This document shows, in pieces, positions 9,728-60,592 of a DNA stretch of 64,000 bases (its first letter is position 1; every line of letters starts with the position of its first letter). The position numbers and the translations under genes were made by a program. The stretch comes from Alistipes sp. (GTDB lineage: Bacteria; Bacteroidota; Bacteroidia; Bacteroidales; Rikenellaceae). The notes beneath the pieces were generated by a model. That model saw only the letters and a list, made by a program, of their open reading frames with translations, searched no databases and was not told the origin of the DNA. Where the stretch lies: contig JAFNXQ010000020.1 of the NCBI GenBank assembly GCA_017383445.1, positions 35,561-99,560 on the forward strand. The letters are read 5' to 3'.

Positions 9728-9729
9728 AG

Positions 9730-37947: not shown

Positions 37948-39024
37948 CTATTCTGCGGCCTCCCAGCCTGTCAGCTGTGCAAAACGGTCGATGACGATAG
38001 CGGCCATCTTCGCCTGCCCGTGGCGGTTGGGATGCTCCGAAGCTCCGAGGTCGGTGGTGCGGTTATATACATTGTGAGAGATGTCTGCCATCTCGCACTT
38101 CTCAATCTCTGCAACCATCTGTGCGACGCACTCCACAGCGTGAGGCGAGTGTACGACACACAAAACGGGCAACTCCTCACCCCAGGCCTCACGCAGCTTT
38201 GCGATGAGTGTGCGGTAGCCCTCCACAAAGAGCTCCTTTTCGGGATGTGGCTGTGTGCTGAAATCGTTTGTGCCGAGAGTAATGACAATAGCATCGGGGC
38301 GATATGTGCTGTTTGCAAAGTCCCATGCCGAGTTCTCATCCTCATCAAAGGTGCGGAAGGCACGTGAGCTCATCGTTGTATTGAAATCCGACAGAGGCTT
38401 CTCATCGCCATAGTTGCGTACCATGCCGCGTCCGGAGTGAGAGATAAGGTTGTAGTCGGCTCCAAAATGCTCGGCTGTAAGAGCTGCGTAGGTGTAGCGG
38501 CAGTTCTCGGTCTCGGCGAGGAAGGGCTCACTGCCCGAGAGGCTCTCGGTGCCGTAGCCACAAGTCAGCGAATCGCCATAAAACTCTATGTGGCGTGCAA
38601 GTGCCAGTTCGTCGGTTGGCAGTAACTTACCCACGACACTCAACGAATGTATTGTCGTGCGACCCTGCTCGGCCTCGGTGGCCTTCTGTATGCGTATGTG
38701 ATGCTCGCCCGTGGCCGCAGCATCGTCAAAAAGCACTACGGTTGTATGCTCGCCCTCACTCTTGAACTTCTCCTGTGCCACGCCATCAACCACAAGGTTG
38801 TAGTAGTTGCACTTGGTGTCGCTGAGTTCGATGGCGAGATATGTACCCTTGAAGCGGATGTCGATATAGACGCCACTCCAATCAAACTGAATTGAGCCAT
38901 CTGCAAGCTCTGCCGTGCGGCCCACCACGCGGATAGGAGCCTCTACGGCCGATAAAGTCTGCTCCGAAGAGCCACAACATCCACTCATTGCGAATAGCAT
39001 AATTGCAATCAAAAACTTTTTCAT
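37948..39024 (-). CDS. SGNH/GDSL esterase lipoprotein, CE2-like
   Basis: Lipobox MSGC, QFDWSG N-terminal domain, GDSLTCGYG, SGRG, LGTND, HP. Confidence 0.85.
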   Translation of the reverse strand: MKKFLIAIMLFAMSGCCGSSEQTLSAVEAPIRVVGRTAELADGSIQFDWSGVYIDIRFKGTYLAIELSDTKCNYYNLVVDGVAQEKFKSEGEHTTVVLFDDAAATGEHHIRIQKATEAEQGRTTIHSLSVVGKLLPTDELALARHIEFYGDSLTCGYGTESLSGSEPFLAETENCRYTYAALTAEHFGADYNLISHSGRGMVRNYGDEKPLSDFNTTMSSRAFRTFDEDENSAWDFANSTYRPDAIVITLGTNDFSTQPHPEKELFVEGYRTLIAKLREAWGEELPVLCVVHSPHAVECVAQMVAEIEKCEMADISHNVYNRTTDLGASEHPNRHGQAKMAAIVIDRFAQLTGWEAAE

Positions 39025-40847
39025 CTGATATACTCTCCCTTAATATTTACATCCAACTTATTGAATGGGTCGGCTTTGGCATCTATCACAACGGCACACT
39101 CCAGGCGTGTCAGTGTGCGTTGCGGATTGTAGTCGGTAAGACCCAGCTGCTCCCACTCACTCTCCGTAACCTCACCGCAGATTGCCGCAAGGTCGCTTAA
39201 TGCAACCTCCCTGTCACTCTCGATAATGGCGACACTCTCATCATAACCATTCCAGCCTCTGGTCAGCTCGGCCAGCGTGATAGGCTCGTTGATATAGAAC
39301 CACGTCTGATTCTCCCAGCCCACGGTCATTCCCTTGCCCTGCATAATGCCCGTAACGCCTATGCGTTGTAGGGCTGCAAAGTGTCGGCTGGTGGTCGGCA
39401 GGTCGAGCAGTGGCAACAGATAGCCGCCTCCGGCGAGTACCTCACGCTGCACCTCACGCACCTTCACCTCGCGTGGCTCGATGTCGAGCATAGCGGCCGT
39501 AGCGGCAATGATTCCCGCCGCCTCGCCAATCTGCATAACCACAGGTTGCAGGCGTGTAGAGCCATTTACTATGTTGCTCACCGAGATAGATTTCTCCGCT
39601 ACGATAAAGTTATCCACGCCCTGCGGCAGCAGCGTACCCATCGGCAGACCATACGACGGTATGGAGTGGAAGTAGAGGTTGGGAAGAGCCTCCCAGCCGG
39701 TATAGCGTGTGTGATGCTGATCTACGGGATAGTCGCCCACACCTATCGCTGTGCGATAGAGGGTGTAGTCGTAGGGATTGGTGATGTGTTGCAGGAGAAA
39801 ACGAACCTCGCCGTGTATGCGGCGCGACTCGCGATGATAGGGCATCAGCGGCATCAAATCCTCGGTCGGGAACTCATCATCAGCCAGGTAGTAGGTGTTG
39901 TAACCCAGCTCGTGCTGGATGAAGTAGAGGAATTTGAGTGTGTGAGCCTTGGCCGCTGCCACAGCCTCTGCCCTCTGCTGCTCGTTCATCTCAATCATAT
40001 TGACATAGAAGTCGTTACCCTCAATCGGCCAGTTAATCATAATCTTGCCTTTGGGCAGACGACCATAGCTCATCATCATACTCTTCGACCATACGCGGTT
40101 GGCCTCTTTTGGTGTCACGCACAGCTCATTGTCGCACGCACACGCAAAGATTGTCGGGTCGTAACCCTCGGGACACTGAATGGTCATATCCTTGCCGTAA
40201 TCCTTGAGAATCATAACCATTGTGAGGTCCTGAATTATGCCGTTGGCCTCATCGGGGGCAACATCCTCACCCGTGACGTGGCGGCTCTCCATACCCATAT
40301 CGTACTCCACACCCAGCATAGCTGCCACATCGCCCAGTTCGGTAGCGTCAATCAACATCTTCGCCTTGACCGAGAAAGTGCCCTGCGGCCCGTCAAGCGT
40401 GATGGTCCAGTGACCCTTCTCATCCTGTTCCAGGCCGTTCAGGCGGGTGTTGAACTCCACCGTCAGCGACTCCTCGCCGCGAGCCATAGCAGCGAAGATT
40501 TCGGCTCCTACGCTTGGCTCAAACAGCAGATTGCTTACCCAGCCCGTTTTCAGAGCCTCGGCACCGCCATAGCGAGCTTCCAGGCTGTCACGCAACTCGC
40601 CCCACAGACCGCCACGCAGGCGATAGTTGCCGTCGGTAGCACTCACGCCTGCCGAGGTGAGCATACCACCCAGCCAGGGGCCCTCTTCGACTATGAGGGT
40701 CGTAGCACCCATGCGTGCTGAACGTATGCCGGCCGTAGTACCACTCACGCCGCCACCTATCACTACAACATCATACTCCTTAGCGGAGCAAGCTAACAAA
40801 ACCACCGTAGCAAGGAGTGCTACGGTGTATTTAATAATCATTCTCAT
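39021..40847 (-). CDS. FAD-dependent oxidoreductase lipoprotein (FAD_oxidored-like family)
   Basis: Lipobox LLAC, VVVIGGGVSG, LGGMLTSAGVS, IDATELGD, GMES, YHRESRR, STRLQP..MQIGEAAG. Confidence 0.85.
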   Translation of the reverse strand: MRMIIKYTVALLATVVLLACSAKEYDVVVIGGGVSGTTAGIRSARMGATTLIVEEGPWLGGMLTSAGVSATDGNYRLRGGLWGELRDSLEARYGGAEALKTGWVSNLLFEPSVGAEIFAAMARGEESLTVEFNTRLNGLEQDEKGHWTITLDGPQGTFSVKAKMLIDATELGDVAAMLGVEYDMGMESRHVTGEDVAPDEANGIIQDLTMVMILKDYGKDMTIQCPEGYDPTIFACACDNELCVTPKEANRVWSKSMMMSYGRLPKGKIMINWPIEGNDFYVNMIEMNEQQRAEAVAAAKAHTLKFLYFIQHELGYNTYYLADDEFPTEDLMPLMPYHRESRRIHGEVRFLLQHITNPYDYTLYRTAIGVGDYPVDQHHTRYTGWEALPNLYFHSIPSYGLPMGTLLPQGVDNFIVAEKSISVSNIVNGSTRLQPVVMQIGEAAGIIAATAAMLDIEPREVKVREVQREVLAGGGYLLPLLDLPTTSRHFAALQRIGVTGIMQGKGMTVGWENQTWFYINEPITLAELTRGWNGYDESVAIIESDREVALSDLAAICGEVTESEWEQLGLTDYNPQRTLTRLECAVVIDAKADPFNKLDVNIKGEYIR

Positions 40848-40854
40848 AGGAAAA

Positions 40855-42279
40855 CTACTCTAAACTTATTGTCTGACTATACTTGTTGCCGAAGCTGTCC
40901 GTAGCCGTTACCGTAGCCGATATCGCCTTCTTGGGTATATCCACGCGGTAGAAGTGGTCACCCTCGGTAGGATAGACGTAGGAGTGGTCCATACCCTTGT
41001 TCGATGAGTACAACTTCTTTGCTAAGGGATCGAGTGATGAGAATCTCGTCATCTTCACAGGTGCAGCACCGTCAAACGAAGCCTCCACAACCCAGTTATC
41101 GTCGCAAGCCCATACGTTTGCAACCAGATCGCCTCTGAACTTCGAGTAATCCTTGCCTGTGTAGAGTATCATCTGATAGTTGTCAGCGTGGCCGGTAGAT
41201 TTGTATATCCACTTAACCTTGTCGCCCTTCACCTCAAAGATACCATAGCCTCGCGGTGTGCCGTCGGTACAGAGCGGGCCCTGCCACCAGGCACCACTCA
41301 ACGCCGGAATGACGTGCTCGTAGAGGTTGTCAGAGATAATCTGATTGCTTGTGGTGTGGGTGTGTCCCGAGAGGATGTGGGCTTTGTAGGGCTCCAGCAT
41401 CTTATGCAATGCCTTGGCATTGGTCATCACGCCTGCGATGTTGTCATACTTGAACTGCTCGCGGTCACTCTTGCTGCAAGTGGTGGGGATGTGAAGCGTC
41501 ACCACCACGGTAGAGCCCTCCTCTACATAGCTCAAATCCTTCTCCAGCCAGGCCATCTGCTTCTCATCGAGGTAGCCGATGTAGAAGTAGTCACGACCGA
41601 TGTAGAAGTTGTCGTTAAGCATCACATAATGCACCTTACCCACGTTGAATGAGTAGTATGTCGGGCCAAAGGTCTCCTCCCAAAGACGTGTCGATGTCTC
41701 GTGGGTGCGGCCATACGGTGTCATATCGTGGTTTCCGGGTGTGCTGAAGAATGTGAGCTCCGACTCGGCAGCAATAGCGTTGTACTGCTCGTAGAATGAG
41801 TGGTCGTACGATATAACATCGCCACAGCAGATGCCGTGGAACGGAATCTTGTAACCCTTCACACTCTTGCGAATGTCGTTCATGCCCTCTTGCAGTGCGG
41901 GGAACTCCTTCTTATGCCAGATTTGTGGGTCGGCAATCACGACAAAGCCGTGATGAGTGTCGTCCTGCTCCTTCTTTATCAGTGTAAAGTCGTAGTCGTT
42001 GCCACCCTTGACCTTGTGCCAGAACATAGGTACGCTGTTCTTTGACTTAACGGTATAACCCGCAGGGATGGTGATATATACCAACCCTTTATCCTCTTCT
42101 GATTCGAGCTTGTAATGGCCCTTGTCGTCGGTTGTTGTGAAGTTCTCGCCATCGGTTACGATCACATTGGCAACGCCGACCTCGTCACAGAGAACCTTAC
42201 CCTTCAAAACCCGCTTCTCGGCGGCAAACATATTCAATGAGAGAGCTACCGACAAGATTAATAATATGTATCGTTTCAT
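40855..42279 (-). CDS. Secreted calcineurin-like metallophosphoesterase
   Basis: ADPQ, GD, GNHD, HIP, GHTH and W...LCTDGTPRGY motifs, with an N-terminal VTDG domain. Confidence 0.88.
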   Translation of the reverse strand: MKRYILLILSVALSLNMFAAEKRVLKGKVLCDEVGVANVIVTDGENFTTTDDKGHYKLESEEDKGLVYITIPAGYTVKSKNSVPMFWHKVKGGNDYDFTLIKKEQDDTHHGFVVIADPQIWHKKEFPALQEGMNDIRKSVKGYKIPFHGICCGDVISYDHSFYEQYNAIAAESELTFFSTPGNHDMTPYGRTHETSTRLWEETFGPTYYSFNVGKVHYVMLNDNFYIGRDYFYIGYLDEKQMAWLEKDLSYVEEGSTVVVTLHIPTTCSKSDREQFKYDNIAGVMTNAKALHKMLEPYKAHILSGHTHTTSNQIISDNLYEHVIPALSGAWWQGPLCTDGTPRGYGIFEVKGDKVKWIYKSTGHADNYQMILYTGKDYSKFRGDLVANVWACDDNWVVEASFDGAAPVKMTRFSSLDPLAKKLYSSNKGMDHSYVYPTEGDHFYRVDIPKKAISATVTATDSFGNKYSQTISLE

Positions 42280-42283
42280 AGTG

Positions 42284-43462
42284 TTATTTCTCCATTTTCG
42301 CTTTCAACTCTTTCAGCAGGCCCTCGCACTTGTAAAGGCCGCGAGGAACGTGGAAGCAACCCTTCCACTTGCCACCTTTGAGAGGCAGCAACACCTCGCC
42401 ACGACGATTCAGGTAGCCATACCACTCGGCATACTCCTCATCGCGGAAGTGCGACCAGGTGTAGTCGTGCAACTTCTCAAACCACTCCTTGCAACGCTGG
42501 TCACCTGTGAGCAGGTAGCCCTCCAGCATAGCGATAGTCGATTCGATATGTACCCACCAGAGCTTCTGGTCCCACTCCAACTGCTGTGGGGGATAGCCCT
42601 TGCGATCCATAAAGTAGAATATGCCGCCAAACTCCTTGTCCCAGCCGAAATCCAGCGTGTTGAGGCCAATCTCAACAGCCTTCTTTGCGAGAGCCTCGTC
42701 GTTGCGACGACGAGCCAGATCCATCAGGAACCATGTTGTCTCCAAGGTGTGACCCGGATTGATAAGACGACCATCGAAAGTGTCACTCAGCGTGCCGTCG
42801 GCGTTCATATGCTCGACAACCAGACCCAACTCCGGACGATAGAACTTATCCATAACATCCGACAACACCAACTCAATAGACTTCTCAACCTGCTCGGGCT
42901 CAATCAGATGCTCAATCTCCAACAGCAGATTACACATAATCATCGAGGGCGAGAGAGCTCGCAAGTCGCGTGAGCCGGGGCAAGCCTTGCTCCAACGGCC
43001 CTTGGGGTTGTCCCAGCGTTCGAGAATGTGGTTGAACGTGCGACGAGTAACCTCTGCATAGCGTTCGTCGCCCGTAGCCTTGTGCAGCTGTGCAAAAGCC
43101 ATAGCGGCAAAGGTGTATGAGAAGATGTTGTAGGGCTCAACCAGCGGCTTACCCTCGCGCGTGATGGCGAAATACCAGTTATAGTCGCCGTCGTGGCCAT
43201 ATTTCAGCATAAACTCGGCTCCCTGACGGGCACACTCCAGCCACTCCTCGCGGATACCCTCCTTGTTGCAGAGCATCGAGAAGAACCACACCTGTCGGCC
43301 TTGCAGCCACATAAACTTATCAGTATCGAAGACCTCTCCATCTCTGTTCAGACAGGTGAAGAAACCACCGAACTCCTTATCCTGTGACTTATCCAGCCAG
43401 AAAGGAATAACTCTGTCGTAGAGCTCGTCGTGGTATTGTTTAATTAAAGCATCAATATTCAT
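42284..43462 (-). CDS. N-acylglucosamine 2-epimerase (AGE/NanE family), cytoplasmic
   Basis: GGFFTCL.RDG, KFMWLQGRQ, NPGH..E, QLEWDQKLWWVH.E, EWYGYL, GKWKGCFHVPR. Confidence 0.93.
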   Translation of the reverse strand: MNIDALIKQYHDELYDRVIPFWLDKSQDKEFGGFFTCLNRDGEVFDTDKFMWLQGRQVWFFSMLCNKEGIREEWLECARQGAEFMLKYGHDGDYNWYFAITREGKPLVEPYNIFSYTFAAMAFAQLHKATGDERYAEVTRRTFNHILERWDNPKGRWSKACPGSRDLRALSPSMIMCNLLLEIEHLIEPEQVEKSIELVLSDVMDKFYRPELGLVVEHMNADGTLSDTFDGRLINPGHTLETTWFLMDLARRRNDEALAKKAVEIGLNTLDFGWDKEFGGIFYFMDRKGYPPQQLEWDQKLWWVHIESTIAMLEGYLLTGDQRCKEWFEKLHDYTWSHFRDEEYAEWYGYLNRRGEVLLPLKGGKWKGCFHVPRGLYKCEGLLKELKAKMEK

Positions 43463-43520
43463 TGTATATTGGTTTTAGATTTTTTTCAGTTTATAAAAGT
43501 CAGGCTCTCGCCCCGTCATC

Positions 43521-44459
43521 TTACAGCTTCTCGCCAAGGAAATACTCGCGGTAGCGGTCAAAGAGATGATGTGCCGACGTGTAACTTGACTGCGGCGAGA
43601 GGAAGTGCGAGAACTCGAAGGTGATAGCCTTGTCGTAACCGGCACGAGCCGCCGCCTCCAACTTCATACGCAACTTCTCGAACTTAATGGGCAGGAACTT
43701 GATGGGCATATCTCGGTCGAAGGTCTCGGCATTGGTCCAGCACTCCAAACCGTAGCGGTCGGCCAGACGCTTGTTCACCTCAAAGAAGGCATCCAGCTCG
43801 TCGTAGTCGATGTGTCCATCCTGAAAGGCTACGGCATCTACCGCACCGTGAATACCGGCGAATATCTCGTCCCACTCTCTCTCGTGGTCGGCAACCGACA
43901 CGGCATCCTCCTTGCTCAAAGTTGCCGAGGCAGCCATCACCGCCTTCTTGCCGTCAATCCAGGGAGAGATAAGCGTGGGCAGACCCCCCGACACAGCCTT
44001 GCAATGCTCGCCCTGCTCGCGGAAGGCCTCGATGACACCCTTCGTGCGACGACTAATCTCGCCACTCAGGTACCAGCCTCCGAATGATGGGTGGTGCTGA
44101 CCATAGTTCTCCCACACCTCGTCGATGACGAAGCGGTTGTATTCGGTCTCCTTCGACATATCGCCCGTATCCCAATAGTGGCCCGAATCATATAGTCCGA
44201 AGTAGAACTTCATACCATACTTGTCGGCCAGACGCAGGAACATATCCAGCAAATCGTGCGATGGGGCATAGCAGCCCTTGCCGATAAGGTATTTCGAGGG
44301 ATATGTGATAAACTTGCGATATCCCGAACGTATCATTATGACGGTGTCAATACCGATAGAACGCATATTTGCGAAGTCGGCATCCCACTCCTTCTCACCC
44401 CAGTTCTGGTGCGGAATGTCGTGGCTTATTTCATCGAGAAATGTTCCGGTAATCTTCAT
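43521..44459 (-). CDS. DUF4434-like putative glycoside hydrolase (TIM barrel), no signal peptide
   Basis: ITGTFLDEISHDIPHQNWG, FGGWYLSGE, AFQDG, W.NAETF, ITFEFSHF. Confidence 0.75.
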   Translation of the reverse strand: MKITGTFLDEISHDIPHQNWGEKEWDADFANMRSIGIDTVIMIRSGYRKFITYPSKYLIGKGCYAPSHDLLDMFLRLADKYGMKFYFGLYDSGHYWDTGDMSKETEYNRFVIDEVWENYGQHHPSFGGWYLSGEISRRTKGVIEAFREQGEHCKAVSGGLPTLISPWIDGKKAVMAASATLSKEDAVSVADHEREWDEIFAGIHGAVDAVAFQDGHIDYDELDAFFEVNKRLADRYGLECWTNAETFDRDMPIKFLPIKFEKLRMKLEAAARAGYDKAITFEFSHFLSPQSSYTSAHHLFDRYREYFLGEKL

Positions 44460-44472
44460 ATACCAAGTTGTT

Positions 44473-45879
44473 TTACGATTTCCAATAATAGTTTTTGCGG
44501 GTAAGCGGATATGTTACCGCTATTACCAGCAGAGCAAACAGCACACCTCGGGCAAAACCCAGCCACGGAGCCTCTGAACAAAACTCATTCAGCGGTTTGA
44601 TAAGGCCGAGCAGTGTCAGCAGCGGTGTGATAAGGTATCCCGCAGCCACATAGGCGAACATGGGATTTGCTCCACACGCCTCCAACGCCTTGAAACGGGT
44701 GTTGAAACGTATCTCCATAATGAGTGCTGCAAGCAGGACCATTGCGGCCATTGCCGAGGTGGTGAAGAAATATCCTATTGTCGCAGGGTCCTTCTTTATT
44801 CCGCCCTCCATAGGCTCTGCTATAAGACCTATGAGCAGCATAGCCACCGCAGCGGCATATATCTCGCGATAGAGTTTAGTGTCGTTTCCCTTGACCCTGT
44901 TGAGCAGTATCCACGTCGCAGCAACAAGCACAACCGTCAGGATGACGCAGATGCCCACCTCGCGGACAAACAAACCCCACATCAGCACCACGATAGTTGC
45001 CACGATAGCGATTACGATGCCTGCCAGCACCCACCTTTGCGGCTTGTCGCTGCCCTCGGCCGAGAGCTGACCGGCGGCGGTTGTACGCTGAATGCTGTCG
45101 CCGATGATACTACCGGCAAGTACTATGCAGAGATACTTCAAAAACTCAAAGCGGAAGAGCCACGCCGCAGGCGATTGCTGCCACAACCACTCGCACCACG
45201 AACCCTTGACTTCGGACGCTAACTTCAATACGGCGAAGGCGGCGATAATGATGATGCGGGCGGTCAGCGAATTACGTGTAGCCCACCACAACAATGTGCC
45301 GAACAGAGCCACATTGGCGAGAATGAGTATGATGATGTTATTTACCGAAAGACTCACCCCGACACCAAAAAGTGGCTTGTAGAGCATAGTGAGGACTATG
45401 AGCAGGATAAATCCGCCCCAGTTGAGTATGGTGTTCTTGCCCCTCTCCATGTTGGGGAAGCGTATGAACATTGCAAAGAAGAGCAGCCATACGCATAGTG
45501 TTGCAAGAGCCGCAACCCACGAAGCCGTACCCTTGATGAGATACATACCCGTATTTCCCAGTATGATGGCGAAGGCCGCCAACCACACAAAACGATGTAT
45601 GGCACTCTTGCATACAGCTCCCCAGCCTGCTCCCTGTGCCTCTCTGCGACGCAGTGCCAGAGGCATAGATGCTCCCATCGAGAAGAGGAAGAAGGGGAAG
45701 ACCAGATCGACCCATGTGATACCCGGCACTTCGGGGTTAAACCGGAATGTGGGCGGTGGCAGCTGTGCGTGAAACATCGCAGCGGGGAGCCCGGCATCCC
45801 ACAGCATACTGCCCGAGGCAACCATACCCACGATTGCCAAAGCTCTCAACAAATCTATCGCCGCTACACGTTTCATCAT
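44473..45879 (-). CDS. DUF5009 / HGSNAT(NagX)-like transmembrane acyltransferase
   Basis: R...IDLLR.L....M, FHAQ, GITWVDLVFPFFLF.MG, GGIKKDPAT, G.NPM.AY; many TM helices. Confidence 0.78.
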   Translation of the reverse strand: MMKRVAAIDLLRALAIVGMVASGSMLWDAGLPAAMFHAQLPPPTFRFNPEVPGITWVDLVFPFFLFSMGASMPLALRRREAQGAGWGAVCKSAIHRFVWLAAFAIILGNTGMYLIKGTASWVAALATLCVWLLFFAMFIRFPNMERGKNTILNWGGFILLIVLTMLYKPLFGVGVSLSVNNIIILILANVALFGTLLWWATRNSLTARIIIIAAFAVLKLASEVKGSWCEWLWQQSPAAWLFRFEFLKYLCIVLAGSIIGDSIQRTTAAGQLSAEGSDKPQRWVLAGIVIAIVATIVVLMWGLFVREVGICVILTVVLVAATWILLNRVKGNDTKLYREIYAAAVAMLLIGLIAEPMEGGIKKDPATIGYFFTTSAMAAMVLLAALIMEIRFNTRFKALEACGANPMFAYVAAGYLITPLLTLLGLIKPLNEFCSEAPWLGFARGVLFALLVIAVTYPLTRKNYYWKS

Positions 45880-45897
45880 CTGCTGCTTATTCTGTTT

Positions 45898-46566: not shown

Positions 46567-46586
46567 TGTTCTGATATGTTTATGTT

Positions 46587-48266: not shown

Positions 48267-48296
48267 TGTTTAATATGTTAATTATCATTGTTTTGT

Positions 48297-48326
48297 ACCC
48301 ATAGCCCCGATCAAGAGGCTATGGGT
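48297..48326. other. Intra-operon stem-loop (mRNA stabiliser or weak terminator)
   Basis: ACCCATAGCC...GGCTATGGGT. There is no U run on the transcribed minus strand. It separates the transport/binding genes from the downstream enzyme genes. Confidence 0.6.
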
Positions 48327-48337
48327 TTTATAGGGTC

Positions 48338-50062: not shown

Positions 50063-50073
50063 AGAATTAGCTA

Positions 50074-51708: not shown

Positions 51709-51727
51709 AATTTTCAAGTTTTTCGGA

Positions 51728-54700
51728 TTATAGAGTAATATTCAAACCTACCGACATCACGCGCTGCTGTGGATAGTAACCGTTGTTTACGCTCGGCTGC
51801 TCGGGGTCGATATTGTATTTGCTCACGTGGCTCAATGTGAAGATGTTAGAACCCTCAACATATACTCTGATACGCTGAATACCAGCCTTTCGTGTCAGCT
51901 TGGCGGGAAGAGTATAACCCAACTGGATAGTCTTCAAGCGGAGGTAGTCACCCGGACGATACCAGCGAGTTGAAGAGTAAGCGTTGTTTGAGCTGCTTGC
52001 AAGAGAGAGACGTGGGAAGTAAGCGTCGGTATTCTCCGGTGTCCAAGAGTTCTCTACAAGGTAGAGAGGAGAGTTACCATCGTGATAGAAAGGCTTTGTC
52101 ATTGAGGTATTGTCCATAATACCACCTGCATAAACACCTGTCAAAGCGATAGTTGAGCCGACACCACCCTGCAACAGGAAGTTGAAGTCGATGCCCTTCC
52201 ACTCGCAGTTGAATGCCAAACCACCTGTAAACTTGGGATATACGCTGGTACCTACATAACCACGGTCCTGCTCATAAGAGATGATACCGTCACCATTTCT
52301 ATCCTCATACTTGATATCACCCACGCGGATAGGCTTACCTACCATTGTAGGAGAGTTCTGAATCTCCTCCTCACTCTGGAACAAACCCTTGTCGATGAAA
52401 CCGATTACAGCACCAACCTCCTTGCCTGTCAGCTTCTGGTAGTCGGGAGTGTTGTCTGCATCGCCTGCATAGTACAACCAGCGACGCTTTGCGTAAGAGC
52501 CCATAAACTTGATGCCGTAAGAGAAGTCGCCGGCACGGTTGTTATGAGAGATTGAGAAGTCAAAACCGCGAACGTCCTGCTTGTTTACATTATCAACCGA
52601 TGGGAAGTAACCACCCACTGATGGAGGATAGCTACCGCCTACGCTTGCAAGCATATCATATTTATAGGTATAGAAGACGTCGGCCTCGATACCGAGCAAG
52701 CCCTTCCAGAATGTAGCATCAACACCAATGTTGTAGTTCAGGTTCTTCTCCCAGGTGATGTTGGGGTTGGCGATACCGCCTGTGTAGATACCCAACTGAC
52801 CCTGACCGCCGATAACAACGCCGTTAGATGATGGAATTGTCATCGTGCTCAAATACTGGAATGCACTAACTGCTGATGTACCTGTAAGACCGATACCACC
52901 ACGCAACTTCAAGTTATCAACCCATCTTGACTTGAACCACTTCTCCTGTGAGATACGCCAGCCGGCAGATGCTGCGGGGAAGAAGCCCCAGCGTGAGCCG
53001 TTCATACCAGAGAAGAGGTAAGTACCATCGTAACGACCTGAAAGCTCGACATAGATACGGTCGTCGTAGTCGTAGTTCAAACGAGCCACGAAACCTACCT
53101 GACGGCTGTGTGCACTTGTACCACCCACGGCACGCTTGTCGTTTGAGCCATCACCGAAGTTAAGTTCGGGAAGGTTCTCGAACATAAGGTCATACATACG
53201 GCCATAGTGGTTGTTGCTTCTGTAATCGCGAGTCTCCAACAATGCCAACGCAGCAACGCGGTGCTTACCGAATGTGTTGTCGTAAGAGAGGCTTGTCTGT
53301 GTGATGCCGTTGAAGGTGTAATATGAAGCCTCCTGCAAGTTGTTTACATCGCCCAGACCCGAATATGTCTGACTTACGGTGTAATTCATCTTGTAGATAT
53401 AGCCGTTCTCGTCATAAGCAAAGTTTGCCAACGCCATCTTGTAAGGTGTAGAGAACTGCTTTGTGTGAGTGAAGGCCATATCGTATGATGCGAAGAACTT
53501 CGCTGAAAGGCCCTTAACCCAAGGAATATCCCAACGCAGTGAGATGTTGGGCTCGATATATGTCGCCAGACGGCGGTTTTTACCAGACTCCTGATAAGCA
53601 GCAACGGGATTGACCGTAGCCGAAGCGGTAGCGGTAGCAGTGTGATACTCTGTACCGTCGATTGTCATCTTCTCAGGAACGTATGGGTGAACACGCATAG
53701 CCTGCTGTGCAACGTTGTTCCATGCACTGGGATCTGCCGAGTATGTAGGCTGGTCGTGCTCCTGAATACGGCCTGCAAGACCCACCTCCAATGTGAGGTT
53801 GTTGGCAATCTTGGCCGAGAGGTTGGCACGCATGTTATAACGGCGGAAGTTGAAGTTATCGACATTACCCTTCTGGTCGAACATACCGATTGAAGCGAAG
53901 TAGTTCATATTGTCGTTACCGCCATTAGCAGAGATTGTGTGCGACATGTTGTGACCGATGTTGAACACCTTGTTATACCAGTTGGTGTTACCCCAGCCAT
54001 CCTCCTCGTTAATCATCTTCTGAACGATGTCAGATGTGAAGATAGGCTGCTGACCATCCAGCTCCAATGCCTTGTTGTACCAGTAAGCATAACCGGGACC
54101 ATCAAGCAAAGTCATTGGGTTGGCATTCTGGCTGACACCATAAGAACCCTTGTATGAGATTGTTGAGGCACCCTTCTGGCCACGCTTTGTGGTTACGATG
54201 ATAACGGTGTTACCATCCAGACCATAAACGGCAGCTGCCGAAGCATCCTTCAATACCGAGATAGACTCGATATCCTCGGGATTGATCTGGCTGATGTCAC
54301 GGGGCACACCGTCCACGATGTAGAGTACAGACTGACCACGCACCATGATAGAAGAGCCATCGGCACCGGGCTGACCAGAGAGCTGCACAGCAGTAACACC
54401 TGCCACACGACCTGCCAGCATATTCGAGATATTACCGACGGGGGCCTTCTCCAACTCCTTACCAGAGATTTGAGAGATAGCGGCTGTCACCGACTGCTTC
54501 TTCTGCACACCGTAACCTACCACGACAACCTCGTCCACCTGCTCTGCATCGCTTTTCAGCTCAACAGTGATGTTTTTAAGGTCGGCAGTCACCGGTACAT
54601 ACACAGTCTCCATACCGAGGAATGAAATCTCGAGTCGGCTACCAGCTTTAGCCGTGAGTGAGAAGTGTCCGTTGATGTCGGTAGAGGTACCTGTATTGGT

Positions 54701-54877
54701 GCCCTCCACGATAACGGTTGCTCCGATGACGGGAGCACCCGCTTCATCAACAACAGTTCCCTTGATTGAATTTTGTGCCCAAGCTGCACTGGGGCTCAAA
54801 ATCACGAAGAGGGCACAGAGGATTGATAAGATGGATTTACAAATCCCCCCCCCTTGTTTTTGGGATAAATGTTTCAT
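51728..54877 (-). CDS. SusC/RagA TonB-dependent transporter
   Basis: GAPVIGATV, EVVVVGYG, LAGRVAG, IESISVLKDASAAAVYG, TTKRG, FFPAASAGW, ITWEK, GDIKYED, YLRLK, YP..R. Confidence 0.96.
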   Translation of the reverse strand: MKHLSQKQGGGICKSILSILCALFVILSPSAAWAQNSIKGTVVDEAGAPVIGATVIVEGTNTGTSTDINGHFSLTAKAGSRLEISFLGMETVYVPVTADLKNITVELKSDAEQVDEVVVVGYGVQKKQSVTAAISQISGKELEKAPVGNISNMLAGRVAGVTAVQLSGQPGADGSSIMVRGQSVLYIVDGVPRDISQINPEDIESISVLKDASAAAVYGLDGNTVIIVTTKRGQKGASTISYKGSYGVSQNANPMTLLDGPGYAYWYNKALELDGQQPIFTSDIVQKMINEEDGWGNTNWYNKVFNIGHNMSHTISANGGNDNMNYFASIGMFDQKGNVDNFNFRRYNMRANLSAKIANNLTLEVGLAGRIQEHDQPTYSADPSAWNNVAQQAMRVHPYVPEKMTIDGTEYHTATATASATVNPVAAYQESGKNRRLATYIEPNISLRWDIPWVKGLSAKFFASYDMAFTHTKQFSTPYKMALANFAYDENGYIYKMNYTVSQTYSGLGDVNNLQEASYYTFNGITQTSLSYDNTFGKHRVAALALLETRDYRSNNHYGRMYDLMFENLPELNFGDGSNDKRAVGGTSAHSRQVGFVARLNYDYDDRIYVELSGRYDGTYLFSGMNGSRWGFFPAASAGWRISQEKWFKSRWVDNLKLRGGIGLTGTSAVSAFQYLSTMTIPSSNGVVIGGQGQLGIYTGGIANPNITWEKNLNYNIGVDATFWKGLLGIEADVFYTYKYDMLASVGGSYPPSVGGYFPSVDNVNKQDVRGFDFSISHNNRAGDFSYGIKFMGSYAKRRWLYYAGDADNTPDYQKLTGKEVGAVIGFIDKGLFQSEEEIQNSPTMVGKPIRVGDIKYEDRNGDGIISYEQDRGYVGTSVYPKFTGGLAFNCEWKGIDFNFLLQGGVGSTIALTGVYAGGIMDNTSMTKPFYHDGNSPLYLVENSWTPENTDAYFPRLSLASSSNNAYSSTRWYRPGDYLRLKTIQLGYTLPAKLTRKAGIQRIRVYVEGSNIFTLSHVSKYNIDPEQPSVNNGYYPQQRVMSVGLNITL

Positions 54878-54906
54878 AATGATATAGTTTTAAGTTTGTG
54901 TATTGA

Positions 54907-56232
54907 TTACTCTGTCTTAATGTTCTGTTCCAGTACATCCCACCAGTCGCGATTGACGATGTGTACGAGGTCAAAAATCATCAAACCGCCTTCGCAACTC
55001 TTCATAACCTGTGCTACGGCACGGCCAAACTGCTCCTTATCCTGCTCATACTGATCAACATAGAGTGAGCCGGCTACGGGAACAACGCCGCAGGTGATGG
55101 CCTGTGCCAACTCGGCACCGCCCTCCACCGAGTAGCAGTATGTAAGGTCGTTGGGGTCCATACCCGACTCGGTACGCTGACCTACAACGCGACCCTGTGC
55201 TGCATCCACCTCATCTTTGGTAACGAGGGTGTAGTAAAGACCTGTCATATAGATATCGAGCAGGTCGGCATAGCCCGTCTTGTAGTAGTTCTCCGAAGCC
55301 CACTCGGGATAACGTTCTGCGGGGTTGTACTGTGTACTTGCCCAGTTCACACCCAGCTGATAGTAGGTAGGATACCAAGCACCTGTATAGTCGCCAATCA
55401 GGATGTTGGGGTTAGCCTCGTGGATGGCTGCGTGAGCCTCCTCAACGAAAGACTTGATGATGGTAGCACGCCACTCAACCCACTCCTTGAAGTATTTCGA
55501 GTGCTTCATCTTGCCATCCTCCCAGTAGATGATATCCTCGGGATACTTCTCCAGCTTGATGCCACTCCACTCCTCAAACTGCTGACGAGAGAGGTCAGAG
55601 AAGTCGGATGTGATGTTGTCGTAACGCAGACGGTCGAAGATGATACCATCGGCATCGGGGTAGCGGGTAGCAAACTCCACCAGAATATTCTTCTGATACT
55701 CACGCACCTCAGGATTTGAGGGGTTGAGCATGCCGTTGTAGTTGCTCTTAATCTCACTGATAGGCACCAGCGAGCCATCGGGACGATAGACGATAGACTG
55801 CCACTCGGGATGCTCGTTGAAGATGATGCCGCGATTGAAGAAGATGTGGCCTCCGGCGAAGATGTTCAGCGAGCCGTGAACACGCATACCGGCACGATGA
55901 CCCTCGTCGATGAAGTGACGCATCATGTCGTACTCGCGGGGACGAACAGTACCCTCAAACTCCGCCATATAGGGGGCGTACTTGCTGTCATAAAGCGTCT
56001 CGCCCATAATAGACTTTACATCGACAACGATGTCGGTGATGCCTATTGCCTTCATCTTATCGACATAGAATGCGATAGAGTCCTGCGAACTCATACGGGC
56101 GAAGTTAGCCTCGCAATCTACCCACATATATACGGGCTTGCTGCTCTTCGTTTGTGCATTGTTGCAGCCGACGACGCCTAACATAGCCGTTGCGACGACT
56201 GCCAATGTGAAAAGTTGAAAGATTCGTTTCAT
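54907..56232 (-). CDS. GHL10 (DUF187)-like glycoside hydrolase lipoprotein
   Basis: Lipobox VVGC, YMWVDCEANF, TDIVVDVK, LNPSNPEVR, DGIIFDR.RY, WYPTYYQLGVNWAS. Paralog of 46587-48266. Confidence 0.78.
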   Translation of the reverse strand: MKRIFQLFTLAVVATAMLGVVGCNNAQTKSSKPVYMWVDCEANFARMSSQDSIAFYVDKMKAIGITDIVVDVKSIMGETLYDSKYAPYMAEFEGTVRPREYDMMRHFIDEGHRAGMRVHGSLNIFAGGHIFFNRGIIFNEHPEWQSIVYRPDGSLVPISEIKSNYNGMLNPSNPEVREYQKNILVEFATRYPDADGIIFDRLRYDNITSDFSDLSRQQFEEWSGIKLEKYPEDIIYWEDGKMKHSKYFKEWVEWRATIIKSFVEEAHAAIHEANPNILIGDYTGAWYPTYYQLGVNWASTQYNPAERYPEWASENYYKTGYADLLDIYMTGLYYTLVTKDEVDAAQGRVVGQRTESGMDPNDLTYCYSVEGGAELAQAITCGVVPVAGSLYVDQYEQDKEQFGRAVAQVMKSCEGGLMIFDLVHIVNRDWWDVLEQNIKTE

Positions 56233-56267
56233 ATACGTTTGATTATTTTGTGTAATTGCAATGTGTC

Positions 56268-57551
56268 CTATTCAATTTCAGCGATGACGATAGCTGTGGG
56301 GACCTGACGCTGGCTGCCGTCGCTTGGTGTGTTACAAACCTCACCATTGTAGCCAACGATAGCCGATGAACCTCCACCATCGAGGTTGATAGCGTAATCC
56401 ATGCCGTGCTCAACAAAGATGTCGGCCATCTCGCTGAGGGTAAGTCCGTTTGAGCCGTTCTTGCCACGACCGTCGCATACGAGCAGCATCAACTTGCCAC
56501 TCTTTGTTCCGCCTATCGCGGTGCGGGGCTGGCGAGTGTTGCCACTTGTACCACCGGTGTGCATAATCTCTCGGTAGTAGTACTCCATAGCCACATTCTT
56601 CTTCTTGTAAACCAGCATCGGGCCGCCGCCGATAGCCTGCTCAGGCTCCCAGAGCTTCGCACCGGCTGTATTGACGGTTGGAGGAGTGGTCATGAACGTA
56701 TGAGTTGTCTCGTCGTTACCCAATGGAGAGGGGAACGAGTATGGCTTGCCATTGATGCAATATACCCAGGTCGCCTCGAATGAGCCGTCGGCATTCTGTC
56801 CGAAAGCGGCACGCACGGGATAGGCAGTAATCTGCTTGCCTGCAGCGTTGTCGGGATATGCTGTCTGTGTGGCGATAGACTTCACCTCGCCGTCAGAGAT
56901 GCAGAGACTGAGTGATGCTCCATCCCAGAAGAAACCGGCATTTGACACTACGTAAGGCGTACCCAGACCGAGAGTTTTGAAGTGCTCAAAGGCAGCCGTA
57001 GGAGTGAGTGCGGGGTTGAGGTGAGTGGGGCAGAAGCGGATGTTGCCGTTTGATTTGAGGTCGGCCAGGACGATGTAGCCCTTCGCTACGCCACCATCCT
57101 CAAAACTCTTCTCAAATGGCTCAACCGACATACGCTTCGGATAGTTTGACTCCGGAGCATCGCTTGCTGTGATGACGGTGACGGGAGTACATACCGAGCC
57201 AAACTGGGCATCGCGGGCTGCGGCGATGAATGTGTATGCCGTAGCGGGTTTCAGGTCGCTTACGACAACCTCTTTGCCGTTTTCAGCATTCAGTGTTGTA
57301 CCCTTCGAGAACACCTCGTCAATAGAGAGGCTGAGGCTCTCGCCCTCGGCGAAATGGTAAGCACACTCCTCTGCGTAGATTGACTTGATAAGCACCGTGA
57401 TAGATGTTGTTGTCTTCTCGATGGGGGTGATTACAACCGCAGGGGTAGTCTCCGGGTCGGGGAAGACATAGTTTGGATTTACCTCTTGTTTGCAACCGAG
57501 GCACAGGCCTACGAGGGCCGTTAAAATTGCTAAAATCGAAAAATTTTTCAT
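56268..57551 (-). CDS. Phosphodiester glycosidase (NAGPA/DUF2233 family) lipoprotein with FN3-like N-terminal domain
   Basis: NAGFF, AIGGGPML, QPRTAIG, LVCDGR, GLTL.EMA, AINLDGGGSS, N.PSDG. Confidence 0.88.
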   Translation of the reverse strand: MKNFSILAILTALVGLCLGCKQEVNPNYVFPDPETTPAVVITPIEKTTTSITVLIKSIYAEECAYHFAEGESLSLSIDEVFSKGTTLNAENGKEVVVSDLKPATAYTFIAAARDAQFGSVCTPVTVITASDAPESNYPKRMSVEPFEKSFEDGGVAKGYIVLADLKSNGNIRFCPTHLNPALTPTAAFEHFKTLGLGTPYVVSNAGFFWDGASLSLCISDGEVKSIATQTAYPDNAAGKQITAYPVRAAFGQNADGSFEATWVYCINGKPYSFPSPLGNDETTHTFMTTPPTVNTAGAKLWEPEQAIGGGPMLVYKKKNVAMEYYYREIMHTGGTSGNTRQPRTAIGGTKSGKLMLLVCDGRGKNGSNGLTLSEMADIFVEHGMDYAINLDGGGSSAIVGYNGEVCNTPSDGSQRQVPTAIVIAEIE

Positions 57552-57699
57552 TGCTTTTGGATATTATAATTCTAATTAGGCGTAAAATTAAAGAATTTTC
57601 TTCATAAAACAAAACTTTTTAAATAAATTTTAATAAGATTTTTTCGCTTGTGATTTGGTTAAAATATTGATATTTAGCATTATAGTTTAATTTTGGTGC

Positions 57700-57707
57700 C
57701 AAAAATA
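57700..57707 (-). promoter_or_regulatory. Candidate -7 box of the PUL promoter
   Basis: TATTTTTG on the minus strand, in the AT-rich intergenic region upstream of the NAGPA gene. Confidence 0.4.
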
Positions 57708-57774
57708 GCAAAATAAAAATTTTTATTAAGTTTGTTTTGTCGTTTTCTGCACTCTTTTTTGGTTGAAAAAGGGC

Positions 57775-57803
57775 AAAAAAAAGAGCCGCCGAAAGGGCGA
57801 CTC
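57775..57803 (-). terminator. Terminator after the MFS gene
   Basis: Minus strand reads GGAGTCGCC-ctttc-GGCGGCTC followed by T8. Confidence 0.75.
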
Positions 57804-57832
57804 CTGATATAGTCCAAAATCGATTTTGCCTA

Positions 57833-59125
57833 TTAGCTCTCCTGTGGCTGCTCCGATGAATCACTGTGTGTGAATGGCAGGAACCAGGTGAGAATAAATG
57901 CCGGAATAGCACTTGCCAAGGCCCAGAGGAAGAACTTCTCGTAGCCGATAGCGTCGCTGATGACACCCGAAATCATACCCGGCAGCATAACGCCGAGGTT
58001 GGCCAGTGCCGAGCCGAAGGCGTAGTGTGCCATCTGGTGCTTTCCGGGAGCCACCTGTTGCATAATGAACAGCGTAAGACCCACAAAACCAAAGCCATAG
58101 CTGAAATACTCGAACACAATACCACCGCATACCAACCACGCACTTTCAGGCTGATATACCGCCAAAAGGGCATAGACTACAAACGGGATATTGAATATGC
58201 AGCAGAGTGGGAATATTGCCTTTTTCAAGCCTCTCCACGAGATGAAATATCCACCCAGAATAGAGCCGACGATGAAGGCTACAACGCCGAATGTGCCATA
58301 GAACAGACCTATCTCGTCCTTTGTCAGGCCGAGGCCCTGCTCCGCTACGGGGGCCTTCAGGAAGAGTGGCACAATCTTGATTACAAGGCCCTCAGTGAAG
58401 CGATAGAAGACGATCCACGCAATGTAAAACCAGATATATTTCTTTTTGAAGAACTGCACGATCACACCCCACGTCTCACGCATTGTCTCGCCAAACGAAG
58501 AGTGGCTCTGTGCCTCGCTTCCGCCTGTCGGAAGTACCTTCCAGTGGTAGAGGCCAAGCACGGTGAGCAGGATGCCGCAGATGAGCATGATTATCACCCA
58601 AGCGTGAAGCACTCCGTAGCGACCTTCGAGCACGCCTGCAAGATAGACCAAACCTCCCATTGCGGTCACTTTGGCGAGGTTGTAAAAAGCACCCTGCCAG
58701 CCTACAAACTGTGCCTGCTGGGTCTTGTTTAACTCTGTGATATACACGCCGTCAAGGGCGATGTCGTGCGTTGCACCGCTGAACGCTAAAACGGTCATAA
58801 TCGCTACCACATAGGGGAAGAAATCGGGCAGTGGCAGAGCCATTGCGATAATGGCTAACGAGACTCCCGAAACGAGCTGCGTGGTAACGACAAAAAACTT
58901 CTTTGTGCGGTACATCTCCATCAGCGGACTCCAGAATGGTTTCAGCGACCAGGGCAGGATGAGCAGCGAGGTCCAGAATGCGACCTGTGCGTCCGAAATA
59001 CCAAAGTCGTTGAACATGATTGGAGCAACGAGATTGATGAGGATAAGTGGCAGACCCATAGCGAAATATGCCGAGGGAACCCACCACAGAGGGGAACGTT
59101 TTGTCTGAGGTAATGCCTGTTCCAT
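57833..59125 (-). CDS. MFS permease, AmpG-like (start at ATG 59125)
   Basis: YFAMGLP, LPWSLKPFWSPL, ATHDIALDG and FYRFTEG motifs of the AmpG/acetyl-CoA transporter branch. Confidence 0.82.
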   Translation of the reverse strand: MEQALPQTKRSPLWWVPSAYFAMGLPLILINLVAPIMFNDFGISDAQVAFWTSLLILPWSLKPFWSPLMEMYRTKKFFVVTTQLVSGVSLAIIAMALPLPDFFPYVVAIMTVLAFSGATHDIALDGVYITELNKTQQAQFVGWQGAFYNLAKVTAMGGLVYLAGVLEGRYGVLHAWVIIMLICGILLTVLGLYHWKVLPTGGSEAQSHSSFGETMRETWGVIVQFFKKKYIWFYIAWIVFYRFTEGLVIKIVPLFLKAPVAEQGLGLTKDEIGLFYGTFGVVAFIVGSILGGYFISWRGLKKAIFPLCCIFNIPFVVYALLAVYQPESAWLVCGGIVFEYFSYGFGFVGLTLFIMQQVAPGKHQMAHYAFGSALANLGVMLPGMISGVISDAIGYEKFFLWALASAIPAFILTWFLPFTHSDSSEQPQES

Positions 59126-59171
59126 TTGCAAGTAAAAATTTATAAGTTTTTATGTTAAAATTCGCTGTTTT

Positions 59172-60377
59172 TTACAGTCCGAGAGCCTTGTTGCGAGTGA
59201 TGGCACAGATGCCTATCAAGCCCGCCGATTCGCCAAGTTTTGAGACCTTGATAGCGGTATCTTTTGAGACGAAATTCAAGGCATATTTATTTATCGCACT
59301 CTTGATTGGCAGCAGGAGGTAATCCTTTGCCGAACAGAGTGTTCCGCCCAGAATTATCACTTCGGGATTGAACATGTTGATAAGTCCTGCGATGGCTCTG
59401 CCGAGTGATGCTCCAATCTGTTCCATCACCTCGATTGCCAGCATATCTTCCTTATCCACTGCCTCCAGAATGTCGCGTACAGTGATCGTCTCTCCCGCCT
59501 CGTATTGGCTGGACAGCATCGAGATATTTCCCTGTTTGAGCTTCTCTATGAACTGGCGGTGTGCGGCACATCCCGACACCTCTGTTTCGAGGCAGCCGCG
59601 TTTGCCACAACTGCATATAATCTCGTTGTCGAAGAATGGGAAGTGTCCATACTCGCCGGAGAATCCCGACTTGCCGTAGTGTAGCTCGCCGCCGAGAATC
59701 ATTCCCACACCGAAACCCCAGCTCAAATTGAGGAAAATCATATCCTGCTCTCCGTTGCCCACGCCGTGAACGTACTCTCCGTAAGCCATTGCTCGTGAGT
59801 CATTTTCGATGAAAACGCGACAGCCGAGTCTCTCCTCCAATGCCGATGTCAGCGGTTTTTCGTCGAAGAAGAAATATGAGTAACTGTATCCCGTGTCGGG
59901 GTTGATGCGGCCCGGTATGTTGATACCTATGGCAAATAGCTTTTCGCGGCGTATGCGGGTGCTGGAGATGAACTGGTTTATCAGGTTGCACAACTCGTCA
60001 AACGATGCTCGCGTGTTTTCGATGGAGAAATCATATTGACGCTGCATCACCATATCGCCACGGAAGTTTATGATGCCCATTATGACTATGTCACGCTTGA
60101 TATCCACGCCCATAAAGTAGCCGGCCGAAGGGTTCAGTCCGTAGATGCTGGGGCGACGACCTCCCGTCGCCACCTGCTTGCCGAGGTCACACACCAGATT
60201 CTCCTCGATGAGAGTTCCTATGATTTTGGTTAGTGTAGGTACGCTGAGTCCGAGTTCTCGGCTGAGGTCGGCAATGCTCTCGCCTCCGTTTTTCATATAG
60301 CGACGCAGAATCTCCCTCTTTAATTGTGCCGATTTGTTACCACACTCCAATGCGTCTAAAAAGTTTGTTTTAGTCAT
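59172..60377 (-). CDS. ROK-family transcriptional repressor (NagC/XylR-like)
   Basis: N-terminal HTH (SIADLSRELGLSVPT), GGRRP, ENDSRA, GEYGH, CSCGKRGCLE. A TAACTTTG box lies at 60441-60448 on the minus strand. Confidence 0.92.
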   Translation of the reverse strand: MTKTNFLDALECGNKSAQLKREILRRYMKNGGESIADLSRELGLSVPTLTKIIGTLIEENLVCDLGKQVATGGRRPSIYGLNPSAGYFMGVDIKRDIVIMGIINFRGDMVMQRQYDFSIENTRASFDELCNLINQFISSTRIRREKLFAIGINIPGRINPDTGYSYSYFFFDEKPLTSALEERLGCRVFIENDSRAMAYGEYVHGVGNGEQDMIFLNLSWGFGVGMILGGELHYGKSGFSGEYGHFPFFDNEIICSCGKRGCLETEVSGCAAHRQFIEKLKQGNISMLSSQYEAGETITVRDILEAVDKEDMLAIEVMEQIGASLGRAIAGLINMFNPEVIILGGTLCSAKDYLLLPIKSAINKYALNFVSKDTAIKVSKLGESAGLIGICAITRNKALGL

Positions 60378-60559: not shown

Positions 60560-60592
60560 TTTGGAAAACAAATATATTTTTTATTATCTTTG
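60560..60592 (+). promoter_or_regulatory. Bacteroidota promoter of the 718-aa lipoprotein gene
   Basis: TTTG (60560-60563), a 21 nt spacer, then TATCTTTG (60585-60592). Confidence 0.65.

Follow-up and report, generated by a model that had tools for sequence, protein, structure and literature searches.

On what does the gene cluster at positions 37948-60377 of this stretch of Alistipes sp. DNA feed? The window, by which we mean the whole stretch analysed (64,000 nucleotides of contig JAFNXQ010000020.1), belongs to an assembly of 1.69 Mb that is 81% complete, and the interval is filled by 15 open reading frames (ORFs), all on the minus strand, from a ROK-family repressor (59172-60377) through to a CE2-type esterase (37948-39024). 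An earlier note made from the sequence alone had listed these 15 genes as a polysaccharide utilization locus (PUL), and ORF listing with Pfam and NCBIfam scans confirmed the set. This SusC/SusD locus may well degrade a glycan containing beta-linked N-acetylmannosamine (ManNAc) on the surface of other bacteria; the most likely candidate is a wall polymer whose anchor is an alpha-N-acetylhexosamine (HexNAc)-1-phosphodiester. We hold this reading as a whole to be evenly balanced; that the polymer is bacterial is somewhat likely, and its being a phosphodiester-anchored wall polymer falls slightly short of even.

A locus of the NanR, PUL8 and PUL9 family

The cluster has the make-up of a Sus-like PUL. 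A SusC-type TonB-dependent transporter (51728-54877; TIGR04056 891 bits, cut-off 368) adjoins a SusD-type binding lipoprotein (50074-51717; Pfam SusD_RagB), and a regulator (the ROK protein) and glycan-acting enzymes (two GHL10 proteins, DUF4434, NAGPA and esterases) are encoded alongside. The locus is a variant of a known family, BT0433-0453 of Bacteroides thetaiotaomicron (NanR regulon; PUL8 and the start of PUL9). The two have in common SusC/D and a NanR-type core made up of ROK, DUF4434 and an N-acylglucosamine 2-epimerase (AGE) of NanE-II type, and a metagenome-assembled genome (MAG) labelled B. thetaiotaomicron contains the row AGE-SusC-SusD-DUF5018-GHL10-phosphoesterase-DUF5009. The repressor resembles NanR (BT0433; Pfam ROK and HTH, E 9e-60) and is 52% identical to the ROK protein encoded divergently from DUF4434 in Bacteroides finegoldii; the DUF4434 protein (43521-44459; Pfam E 1.5e-83) matches PDB 4H41, which is BT0435, with E 1e-168; BT0448/0449 are presumably the GHL10 orthologues. 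Unlike the B. thetaiotaomicron loci, the Alistipes locus encodes a DUF4434 protein without a twin-arginine translocation (TAT) leader, has an AmpG-like permease in place of the sugar porter NanJ (absent from the locus, and with no match in the 81%-complete assembly at 1e-10), and contains NAGPA and lacks GH89. The earlier note expected related gene sets in other Bacteroidales, but it had missed these NanR/PUL8/9 loci, known to be up-regulated on mucin.

The cluster is not a chance arrangement, since its gene order recurs in other genomes: four of ten fetched relatives have all 15 genes in order, together with a divergent gene at the same position as the plus-strand ORF at 60715-62871. This ORF encodes a divergent DUF4988/BACON/DUF5018 lipoprotein (Pfam), 33% identical to the DUF5018 lipoprotein of the locus (48338-50086; PF16410 E 1e-84), which is a predicted surface glycan-binding protein; it probably belongs to the cluster, and is probably a second surface binding protein. 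A leaderless DUF4434 gene follows DUF5009 directly in 9 of the 10 fetched loci, and the nearest named DUF4434 loci are those of Alistipes/Rikenellaceae MAGs (88-98% identity). GHL10b (one of the two GHL10 proteins) has matches in 39 of 200 genomes of the genus, and DUF4434 is present in 31 of 150 genomes at family and 15 of 400 at phylum level; as the relatives are not independent, such counts indicate conservation and not co-evolution.

DUF4434 and the source of ManNAc

What does DUF4434 cleave? The modelled protein is a TIM barrel (pLDDT 89.6) in which E134 follows strand 4 (126-130) and E245 stands at the end of strand 7 (239-244), the arrangement of (beta/alpha)8 enzymes of clan GH-A, and both residues are invariant in all aligned rows that cover them, including Escherichia coli YbcH. 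Fold and glutamates point to a retaining beta-glycosidase, with E134 and E245 as the predicted catalytic pair. After 4H41 (Z 45.1) and Cwp19 (21.5), the fold ranking lists a GH5 mannanase (19.9), a GH164 beta-mannosidase (19.7), a beta-amylase (19.3) and GH42/GH5 enzymes, which are tied within 1 Z unit. The alpha-L-fucosidase in the title of 4H41 was set aside, as fucose genes were not a recurring feature of the loci examined.

The sugar is suggested by the company that DUF4434 keeps. Its neighbourhoods were collected from 80 GTDB, 15 phylum-wide and 80 metagenome loci (175 in total), with flanks of at most 10 kb, many of them shorter, and with many near-copies among the metagenome loci. AGE lies nearby in 53 of the 80, 8 of the 15 and 31 of the 80, respectively, and NanE, which is not homologous to AGE, in 5 of the 80 metagenome loci (an assignment above cut-off in all three cases tested). 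E. coli YbcH is itself a DUF4434 protein (235 bits); its operon, nfrBA-ybcH, is proposed to polymerise UDP-ManNAc (available parts of PMC8669469 and PMC8669472), and an Nfr-like locus exists in Acinetobacter (available part of PMC12507263). On a Comamonadaceae plasmid wecB, a glycosyltransferase, DUF2334, a TPR protein and DUF4434 stand in a row. An inverting family 2 glycosyltransferase (GT2) acting on UDP-alpha-ManNAc makes beta links, and such a product suits a GH-A enzyme like DUF4434. Because two unrelated ManNAc epimerases and wecB-linked synthase operons accompany the family, DUF4434 is likely to be an enzyme that releases ManNAc. No mannosaminidase, acetylmannosaminidase or ManNAcase was found in the open-access literature, and a search on DUF4434 gave nothing relevant, as judged from the listing.

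YbcH shares with the DUF4434 protein of the locus the Pfam family, both predicted catalytic glutamates and the ManNAc context; it differs in its biosynthetic operon, its periplasmic location and a local identity of 22%. Both GH-A-type glutamates are kept in E. coli ybcH (L081:1592-2482) and in L126:11818-12891, and for this reason YbcH may be a hydrolase of Nfr-type synthases. Could the target of the Alistipes locus then be a beta-ManNAc polymer that Gram-negative bacteria secrete or carry as a capsule (an Nfr/PGR-type exopolysaccharide, or a ManNAc/HexNAc-1-phosphate capsule), and that is not anchored to peptidoglycan? The wecB-linked operons are in keeping with this, one of them with a DUF2334 gene that could encode a deacetylase and so would explain the N-acetyltransferase of the locus, as is the second-best fold of GHL10b, the exopolysaccharide hydrolase domain of PgaB (GH153). 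However, a ManNAc homopolymer requires neither NAGPA nor a phosphoesterase, NAGPA and AmpG-like genes stand beside amidases in distant relatives, and the Nfr polymer is produced at a low level under c-di-GMP control, according to the available part of its description. We regard such a target as improbable, a little more so than the host glycans considered below.

Might the ManNAc be derived from sialic acid? In the available part of Ravcheev 2013 (PMC3878776), BT0433-0438 are placed in a predicted NanR regulon for 'sialic acid; N-acetylglucosamine'. Following that annotation, the locus would serve sialic acid (or O-acetylated or polysialic acid), with GHL10 as the sialidase and a lyase elsewhere; one SGNH protein is indeed sialate-esterase-like, SASA domains occur in related loci, and GHL10b can be superimposed on the GH156 sialidase (Z 21.8, rmsd 2.9, 297 residues aligned, 17% identity, the catalytic residues lying outside the comparison). 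The GH156 fold, however, ranks 10 Z units under Cwp19, and the AGE (42284-43462; NF052547 equivalog, 658 bits, cut-off 600; PDB 2GZ6, E 3e-152) is not of the sialic-operon type: it is 62% identical to the AGE beside the BT0435 orthologue and only 37% to the sialic-operon NanE of Tannerella forsythia. The nanLET-nanOU-nanH loci of Bacteroides and Tannerella resemble the locus in having an AGE-family epimerase, SusC/D-type uptake and an O-acetylesterase, and they likewise have a ROK-based route to GlcNAc-6-P (GlcNAc, N-acetylglucosamine), but the locus has no lyase, sialidase or NanT.

Genome counts agree with this. Among 28 Alistipes carriers (27 relatives with a full-length GHL10b match of at least 59%, and the source genome), 27 have the locus-type AGE and one has a match (80%) to the NanL of T. 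forsythia, next to which stands a second AGE (36%). The T. forsythia NanL, chosen by its adjacent AGE, served as query because NF003164 did not tell the NanL of Bacteroidota apart from DapA; eight further carriers have DHDPS-family matches of 27-43% (two at 41-43%, six at about 30%), which were left unclassified. A PF13088 match is found somewhere in the genome of 12 carriers and in none of the other 16; six close relatives (G190, G194, G198, G206, G168 and G162) contain, outside the locus, BNR_2 proteins of about 1300 residues as well as an unclassified gene of the DHDPS family (about 30% to NanL). NanL and sialidase queries found nothing within the flanks of the 175 DUF4434 loci. As the earlier note had stated, neither a sialidase nor an N-acetylneuraminic acid lyase was found among the 22 proteins scanned; a lyase gene elsewhere, which it had named as a possible sign of sialic-acid use, was also looked for, and the 81%-complete assembly yielded only dapA and no PF13088/BNR_2 sialidase. 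Sialic acid does not appear to be the source of the ManNAc at this locus, in line with the earlier proposal, and a sialic-acid locus is highly improbable.

Where would DUF4434 act? An RRxF TAT leader is present in 58 of the 64 DUF4434 ORFs checked and in none of the clade of the locus (labels were assigned by regular expression; L180 is a possible false positive and the L240 sequence is truncated). Among 96 loci, TAT-bearing DUF4434 has a sugar porter as partner in 62 of 70 cases and an AmpG-like gene in none; the leaderless form has an AmpG-like partner in five, a sodium/solute symporter (SSF) in three, a porter in one and no transporter within reach in 14, with three loci cut. AmpG-like and SSF transporters occur only with leaderless DUF4434. 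The permease of the locus (57833-59131; MFS_1), a predicted small-oligosaccharide importer and the only TIGR00901-type match in the assembly, is 13 kb from DUF4434, and its clade is counted among the 14. In a quick tree, where YbcH and the outer rows have long branches, the leaderless clade nests among TAT forms, which suggests that the leader was lost secondarily. Because DUF4434 here has no signal peptide and is paired with an AmpG-like permease, a small glycoside is probably imported and then cleaved in the cytoplasm, by what we predict to be a cytoplasmic beta-N-acetylmannosaminidase.

The polymer and its attachment

What kind of polymer would supply this glycoside? The protein at 56268-57551, which has a lipoprotein-type leader, is a phosphodiester glycosidase of the NAGPA/DUF2233 family (PF09992, E 2.5e-30). 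It keeps the RTAIG and NLDGGGS motifs of vertebrate NAGPA and of the DUF2233 structure 3OHG, including the Asp of DGGGS that is essential and catalytic in human NAGPA (available part of PMC13474241), and differs from that uncovering enzyme in being a bacterial lipoprotein whose match is limited to about 90 C-terminal residues. It also has an N-terminal domain of about 125 residues, with no Pfam match, in common with GHL10a (31% identity). NAGPA and an AmpG-like gene flank DUF4434 in 5 of the 15 phylum-wide loci, in distant Bacteroidota; three of these have an Amidase_3 (muramoyl-alanine amidase) gene adjoining, and one of the three also NamZ, GH3, an HGSNAT domain and GHL10. The cleavage of HexNAc-1-phosphodiesters proposed in the earlier note is made plausible by the kept motif and by this association.

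The linker of wall teichoic acid is ManNAc-beta1,4-GlcNAc-1-P-6-MurNAc. Non-classical wall polymers contain beta-ManNAc-1,4-GlcNAc, O-acetyl groups, pyruvate and free-amine hexosamine (available part of PMC6801904), a composition that matches the esterases and DUF5009 of the locus. The esterases are an SGNH protein (45898-46566; GDSL/SGNH Pfam), a predicted O-acetylesterase, and the CE2-type lipoprotein at 37948-39024 (Pfam CE2_N and GDSL). The DUF5009 membrane protein (44473-45879; PF16401 E 4.5e-58) is HGSNAT-like, a predicted N-acetyltransferase for free-amine hexosamine; it had no sequence match in PDB, and DUF5009 intermixes with HGSNAT, as a family relation only (available part of PMC12423673). 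A secreted calcineurin-like metallophosphoesterase (40855-42279; PF16370/PF16371, MetallophosN/C; signal-peptide-like N-terminus) gave only a weak purple acid phosphatase match in PDB. For the FAD-dependent oxidoreductase lipoprotein (39021-40847; PF12831, E 2e-92), found in 23 of 80 DUF4434 loci, PDB and atlas searches gave nothing beyond the family.

The two GHL10 proteins, both with DUF4985 by Pfam and 32% identical, are GHL10a (46587-48266), a predicted surface endo-enzyme with acidic residues after the lipoprotein Cys, and GHL10b (54907-56232), a TIM-barrel glycosidase with a lipoprotein-type leader. The nearest folds to the GHL10b model (pLDDT 93.1) are Cwp19 (Z 31.5) and the C-terminal GH153 domain of PgaB (26.7), followed by GH151 (25.5) and GH156. 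E. coli DigH, a GHL10 enzyme, cleaves the glycan of peptidoglycan, and the earlier note had cited this for the locus. However, GHL10b has D-R-x-R-Y in place of the Asp195-Asp196-Tyr197 of Cwp19/DigH, and DigH-like cleavage cannot be assumed. D167 and R168 are invariant in 54 aligned GHL10 sequences, all with Arg at the position of Cwp19 Asp196, the key residue of this slow peptidoglycan hydrolase (available part of PMC5765458). GHL10b differs from Cwp19 and PgaB also in identity (19% and 13%), an extra DUF4985 region and its catabolic setting. By their sequences, the GHL10 proteins of the locus are a divergent subfamily, and we read them as putative endo-HexNAc-ases.

Generic scavenging of peptidoglycan or GlcNAc, or recycling of the cell's own envelope, would agree with the Cwp19 fold and the AmpG-like permease, with a NamZ homologue elsewhere in the genome, and with T. 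forsythia carrying a SusC-SusD-DUF5018-GHL10a-phosphoesterase core. We nevertheless think it highly improbable: peptidoglycan requires neither AGE nor DUF4434, the locus has no amidase or MurQ, wecB and murQ were not found in the 81%-complete assembly, and the Arg noted above replaces the key Asp throughout.

Several observations weigh against an anchored ManNAc polymer. The three amidase-linked loci come from one family, NAGPA is found in only 11 of the 80 GTDB loci, and neither murQ nor DUF4127 was found in the 81%-complete assembly. The permease reaches 142 of the 350 bits set for TIGR00901; the likeness to AmpG seen earlier stands, but AmpG proper does not. One of the "two SGNH esterases" is the CE2-type lipoprotein, and the best PDB match of the other is sialate O-acetylesterase 6NJC (E 6.5e-30). 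The tie among its fold matches means that the fold of DUF4434 does not pick the sugar; its direct match to YbcH (22% over 123 residues, E 5e-4) is at family level only, and YbcH is described as an auxiliary or scaffold protein. Related loci contain alpha-mannosidases (GH92 in 3/80, GH38 in 5/15) and GH89, all of which also fit host or fungal glycans. Finally, mucin raises BT_0435 by a log2 fold change of +4.1 and BT_0449 by +4.2 (PMC10994844).

Because of this response to mucin, a host-glycan reading stays alive. The available part of PMC10994844 lists PUL8/9 under 'host glycans, unknown type' and reports their substrate as unknown. Starvation, however, raises BT_0435 by +7.2 and BT_0449 by +6.4, above the mucin values, xylose or maltose raises BT_0435 by +1.9, and GlcNAc induces little (+0.7 for BT_0435, and +1.2); the operons are reported to be Cur-dependent. 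A host-glycan reading would have the locus feed on a minor glycan of hosts, fungi or plants that contains free glucosamine and phosphodiesters, such as glycosylphosphatidylinositol (GPI) anchors, glycosylinositol phosphoceramides (GIPCs) or heparan ends, with AGE and DUF4434 as accessories. A GPI or GIPC substrate would fit DUF5009 and the phosphoesterases, and GH89, GH92, GH38, GH20 and GDPD occur in related loci; GH89, GH92 and GH20 are, however, absent from this one. The close association with two unrelated ManNAc epimerases would be left unexplained, because GPI anchors, GIPCs and heparan ends contain no ManNAc. Such a substrate is unlikely, at perhaps one chance in a handful.

How, then, would an anchored wall polymer be used? 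From what is observed (which genes are present and in what order, their motifs and leader types, and what co-occurs with them) we infer the following course. The surface lipoproteins (SusD and the two DUF5018 proteins) would bind the polymer, GHL10a would cut it, NAGPA would open the HexNAc-1-P link, and SusC would import the fragments. Trimming in the periplasm would fall to GHL10b, both esterases and the metallophosphoesterase, with DUF5009 re-acetylating free-amine hexosamine. A short glycoside, for example ManNAc-beta1,4-GlcNAc, would pass through the AmpG-like permease into the cytoplasm, where DUF4434 would split off ManNAc by a retaining two-glutamate mechanism. AGE would convert ManNAc into GlcNAc, to be phosphorylated and passed to NagA/NagB (nagA and nagB are present in the source genome), and the ROK protein would repress the locus until a HexNAc signal arrives.

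Searches of the open-access literature turned up no PUL for which teichoic-acid linkers or ManNAc wall polymers are the assigned substrate, nor any characterised system for a diet of ManNAc-containing bacterial surface polymers. Papers retrieved by locus tag include Ravcheev 2013 and Townsend 2020; the main texts of PMC8121099 and PMC13634575 do not mention BT043x-045x, and a search on DUF4985, DUF5018, DUF5009 and GHL10, judged by title and start of abstract, gave nothing about the locus. Our more speculative suggestion, less probable than the reading of the locus itself, is that Bacteroidota carry a widespread, unrecognised class of PULs for ManNAc anchors or secondary wall polymers, with DUF4434 as the first beta-N-acetylmannosaminidase family, YbcH trimming polymer, and PF12831 removing a substituent such as a pyruvate ketal. 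If true, the orphan PUL8/9 of B. thetaiotaomicron would be assigned. In the gut, the walls of dead bacteria form a large reservoir of carbon.

Other genes recur around DUF4434. GHL10 is fused to a metallophosphoesterase in Bacteroides (L240:7420-10095) and to a SASA esterase domain in L242:10567-13221, which suggests that GHL10, phosphoesterase and esterase activities share one substrate. The anaerobic glycerol-3-phosphate dehydrogenase genes glpABC stand directly beside DUF4434 in 3 of 80 loci (L002, L065 and L078; those of the source genome are on another contig), a DUF4855-GDPD-like gene in 4 of 80, and GH78 rhamnosidases in 2 of the 80 metagenome loci. A Subdoligranulum locus (L125:4798-16012) combines DUF4434 with an ABC transporter, DUF4127, an N-acetyltransferase resembling AAC(3) (scoring below the resistance cut-offs), a PfkB kinase and two ADP-ribosylglycohydrolase-family genes, a family found near DUF4434 in 5 of the 80 GTDB loci; as it has no DUF5009, the AAC(3)-like gene hints that N-acetylation recurs. 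The SIS protein that neighbours DUF4434 in two loci of Flagellimonas proved not to be MurQ.

Signals in the DNA and neighbouring genes

The ROK gene and the plus-strand lipoprotein gene are separated by a divergent promoter region (60378-60714) with TAnnTTTG boxes, presumably the Bacteroidota-type promoter motif, at 60448-60441 (minus strand) and 60585-60592 (plus strand); both are kept in close relatives. A terminator-like hairpin (57805-57781) ends the pair formed by ROK and permease, and an AT-rich gap stands ahead of the gene run from NAGPA to CE2. A sigma-70 scan was near chance (17 against 12.5 +/- 4.1). In some relatives a AATAAATTTATT-like stretch recurs ahead of both NAGPA and ROK; it is not claimed as an operator, because the DNA is AT-rich and no null test was made. 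Contigs from four RNA libraries, all made from animal guts in a single study, cover most of 42900-62899, which hints weakly at expression; the gaps in all four runs at 57602-57869 and 60416-60549 were not used as evidence.

Elsewhere, the window contains a complete urease cluster (ureA-C, E, F, G and D; 1562-10972, minus strand), accompanied by transporters for urea and for metal (the latter of CbiMQO type); should its first start be real, the gamma-subunit ORF is extended N-terminally by about 140 residues, and Rfam 5_ureB_sRNA matches at 9279-9573. At 11459-19300 lie genes for the fermentation of glutamate by the methylaspartate pathway: those for the S, L and E proteins of B12-dependent glutamate mutase, for methylaspartate ammonia-lyase, for an AtuA-like protein and for a divergent fumarase of class I, possibly a mesaconase. 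Part of a 3-keto-glycoside pathway is found at 20906-25029 (plus strand): a Gfo/Idh/MocA oxidoreductase, then a 929-residue protein with a C-terminal 3-keto-disaccharide hydrolase domain (DUF1080). A tRNA gene (30891-30962, plus strand) follows an RND efflux operon.

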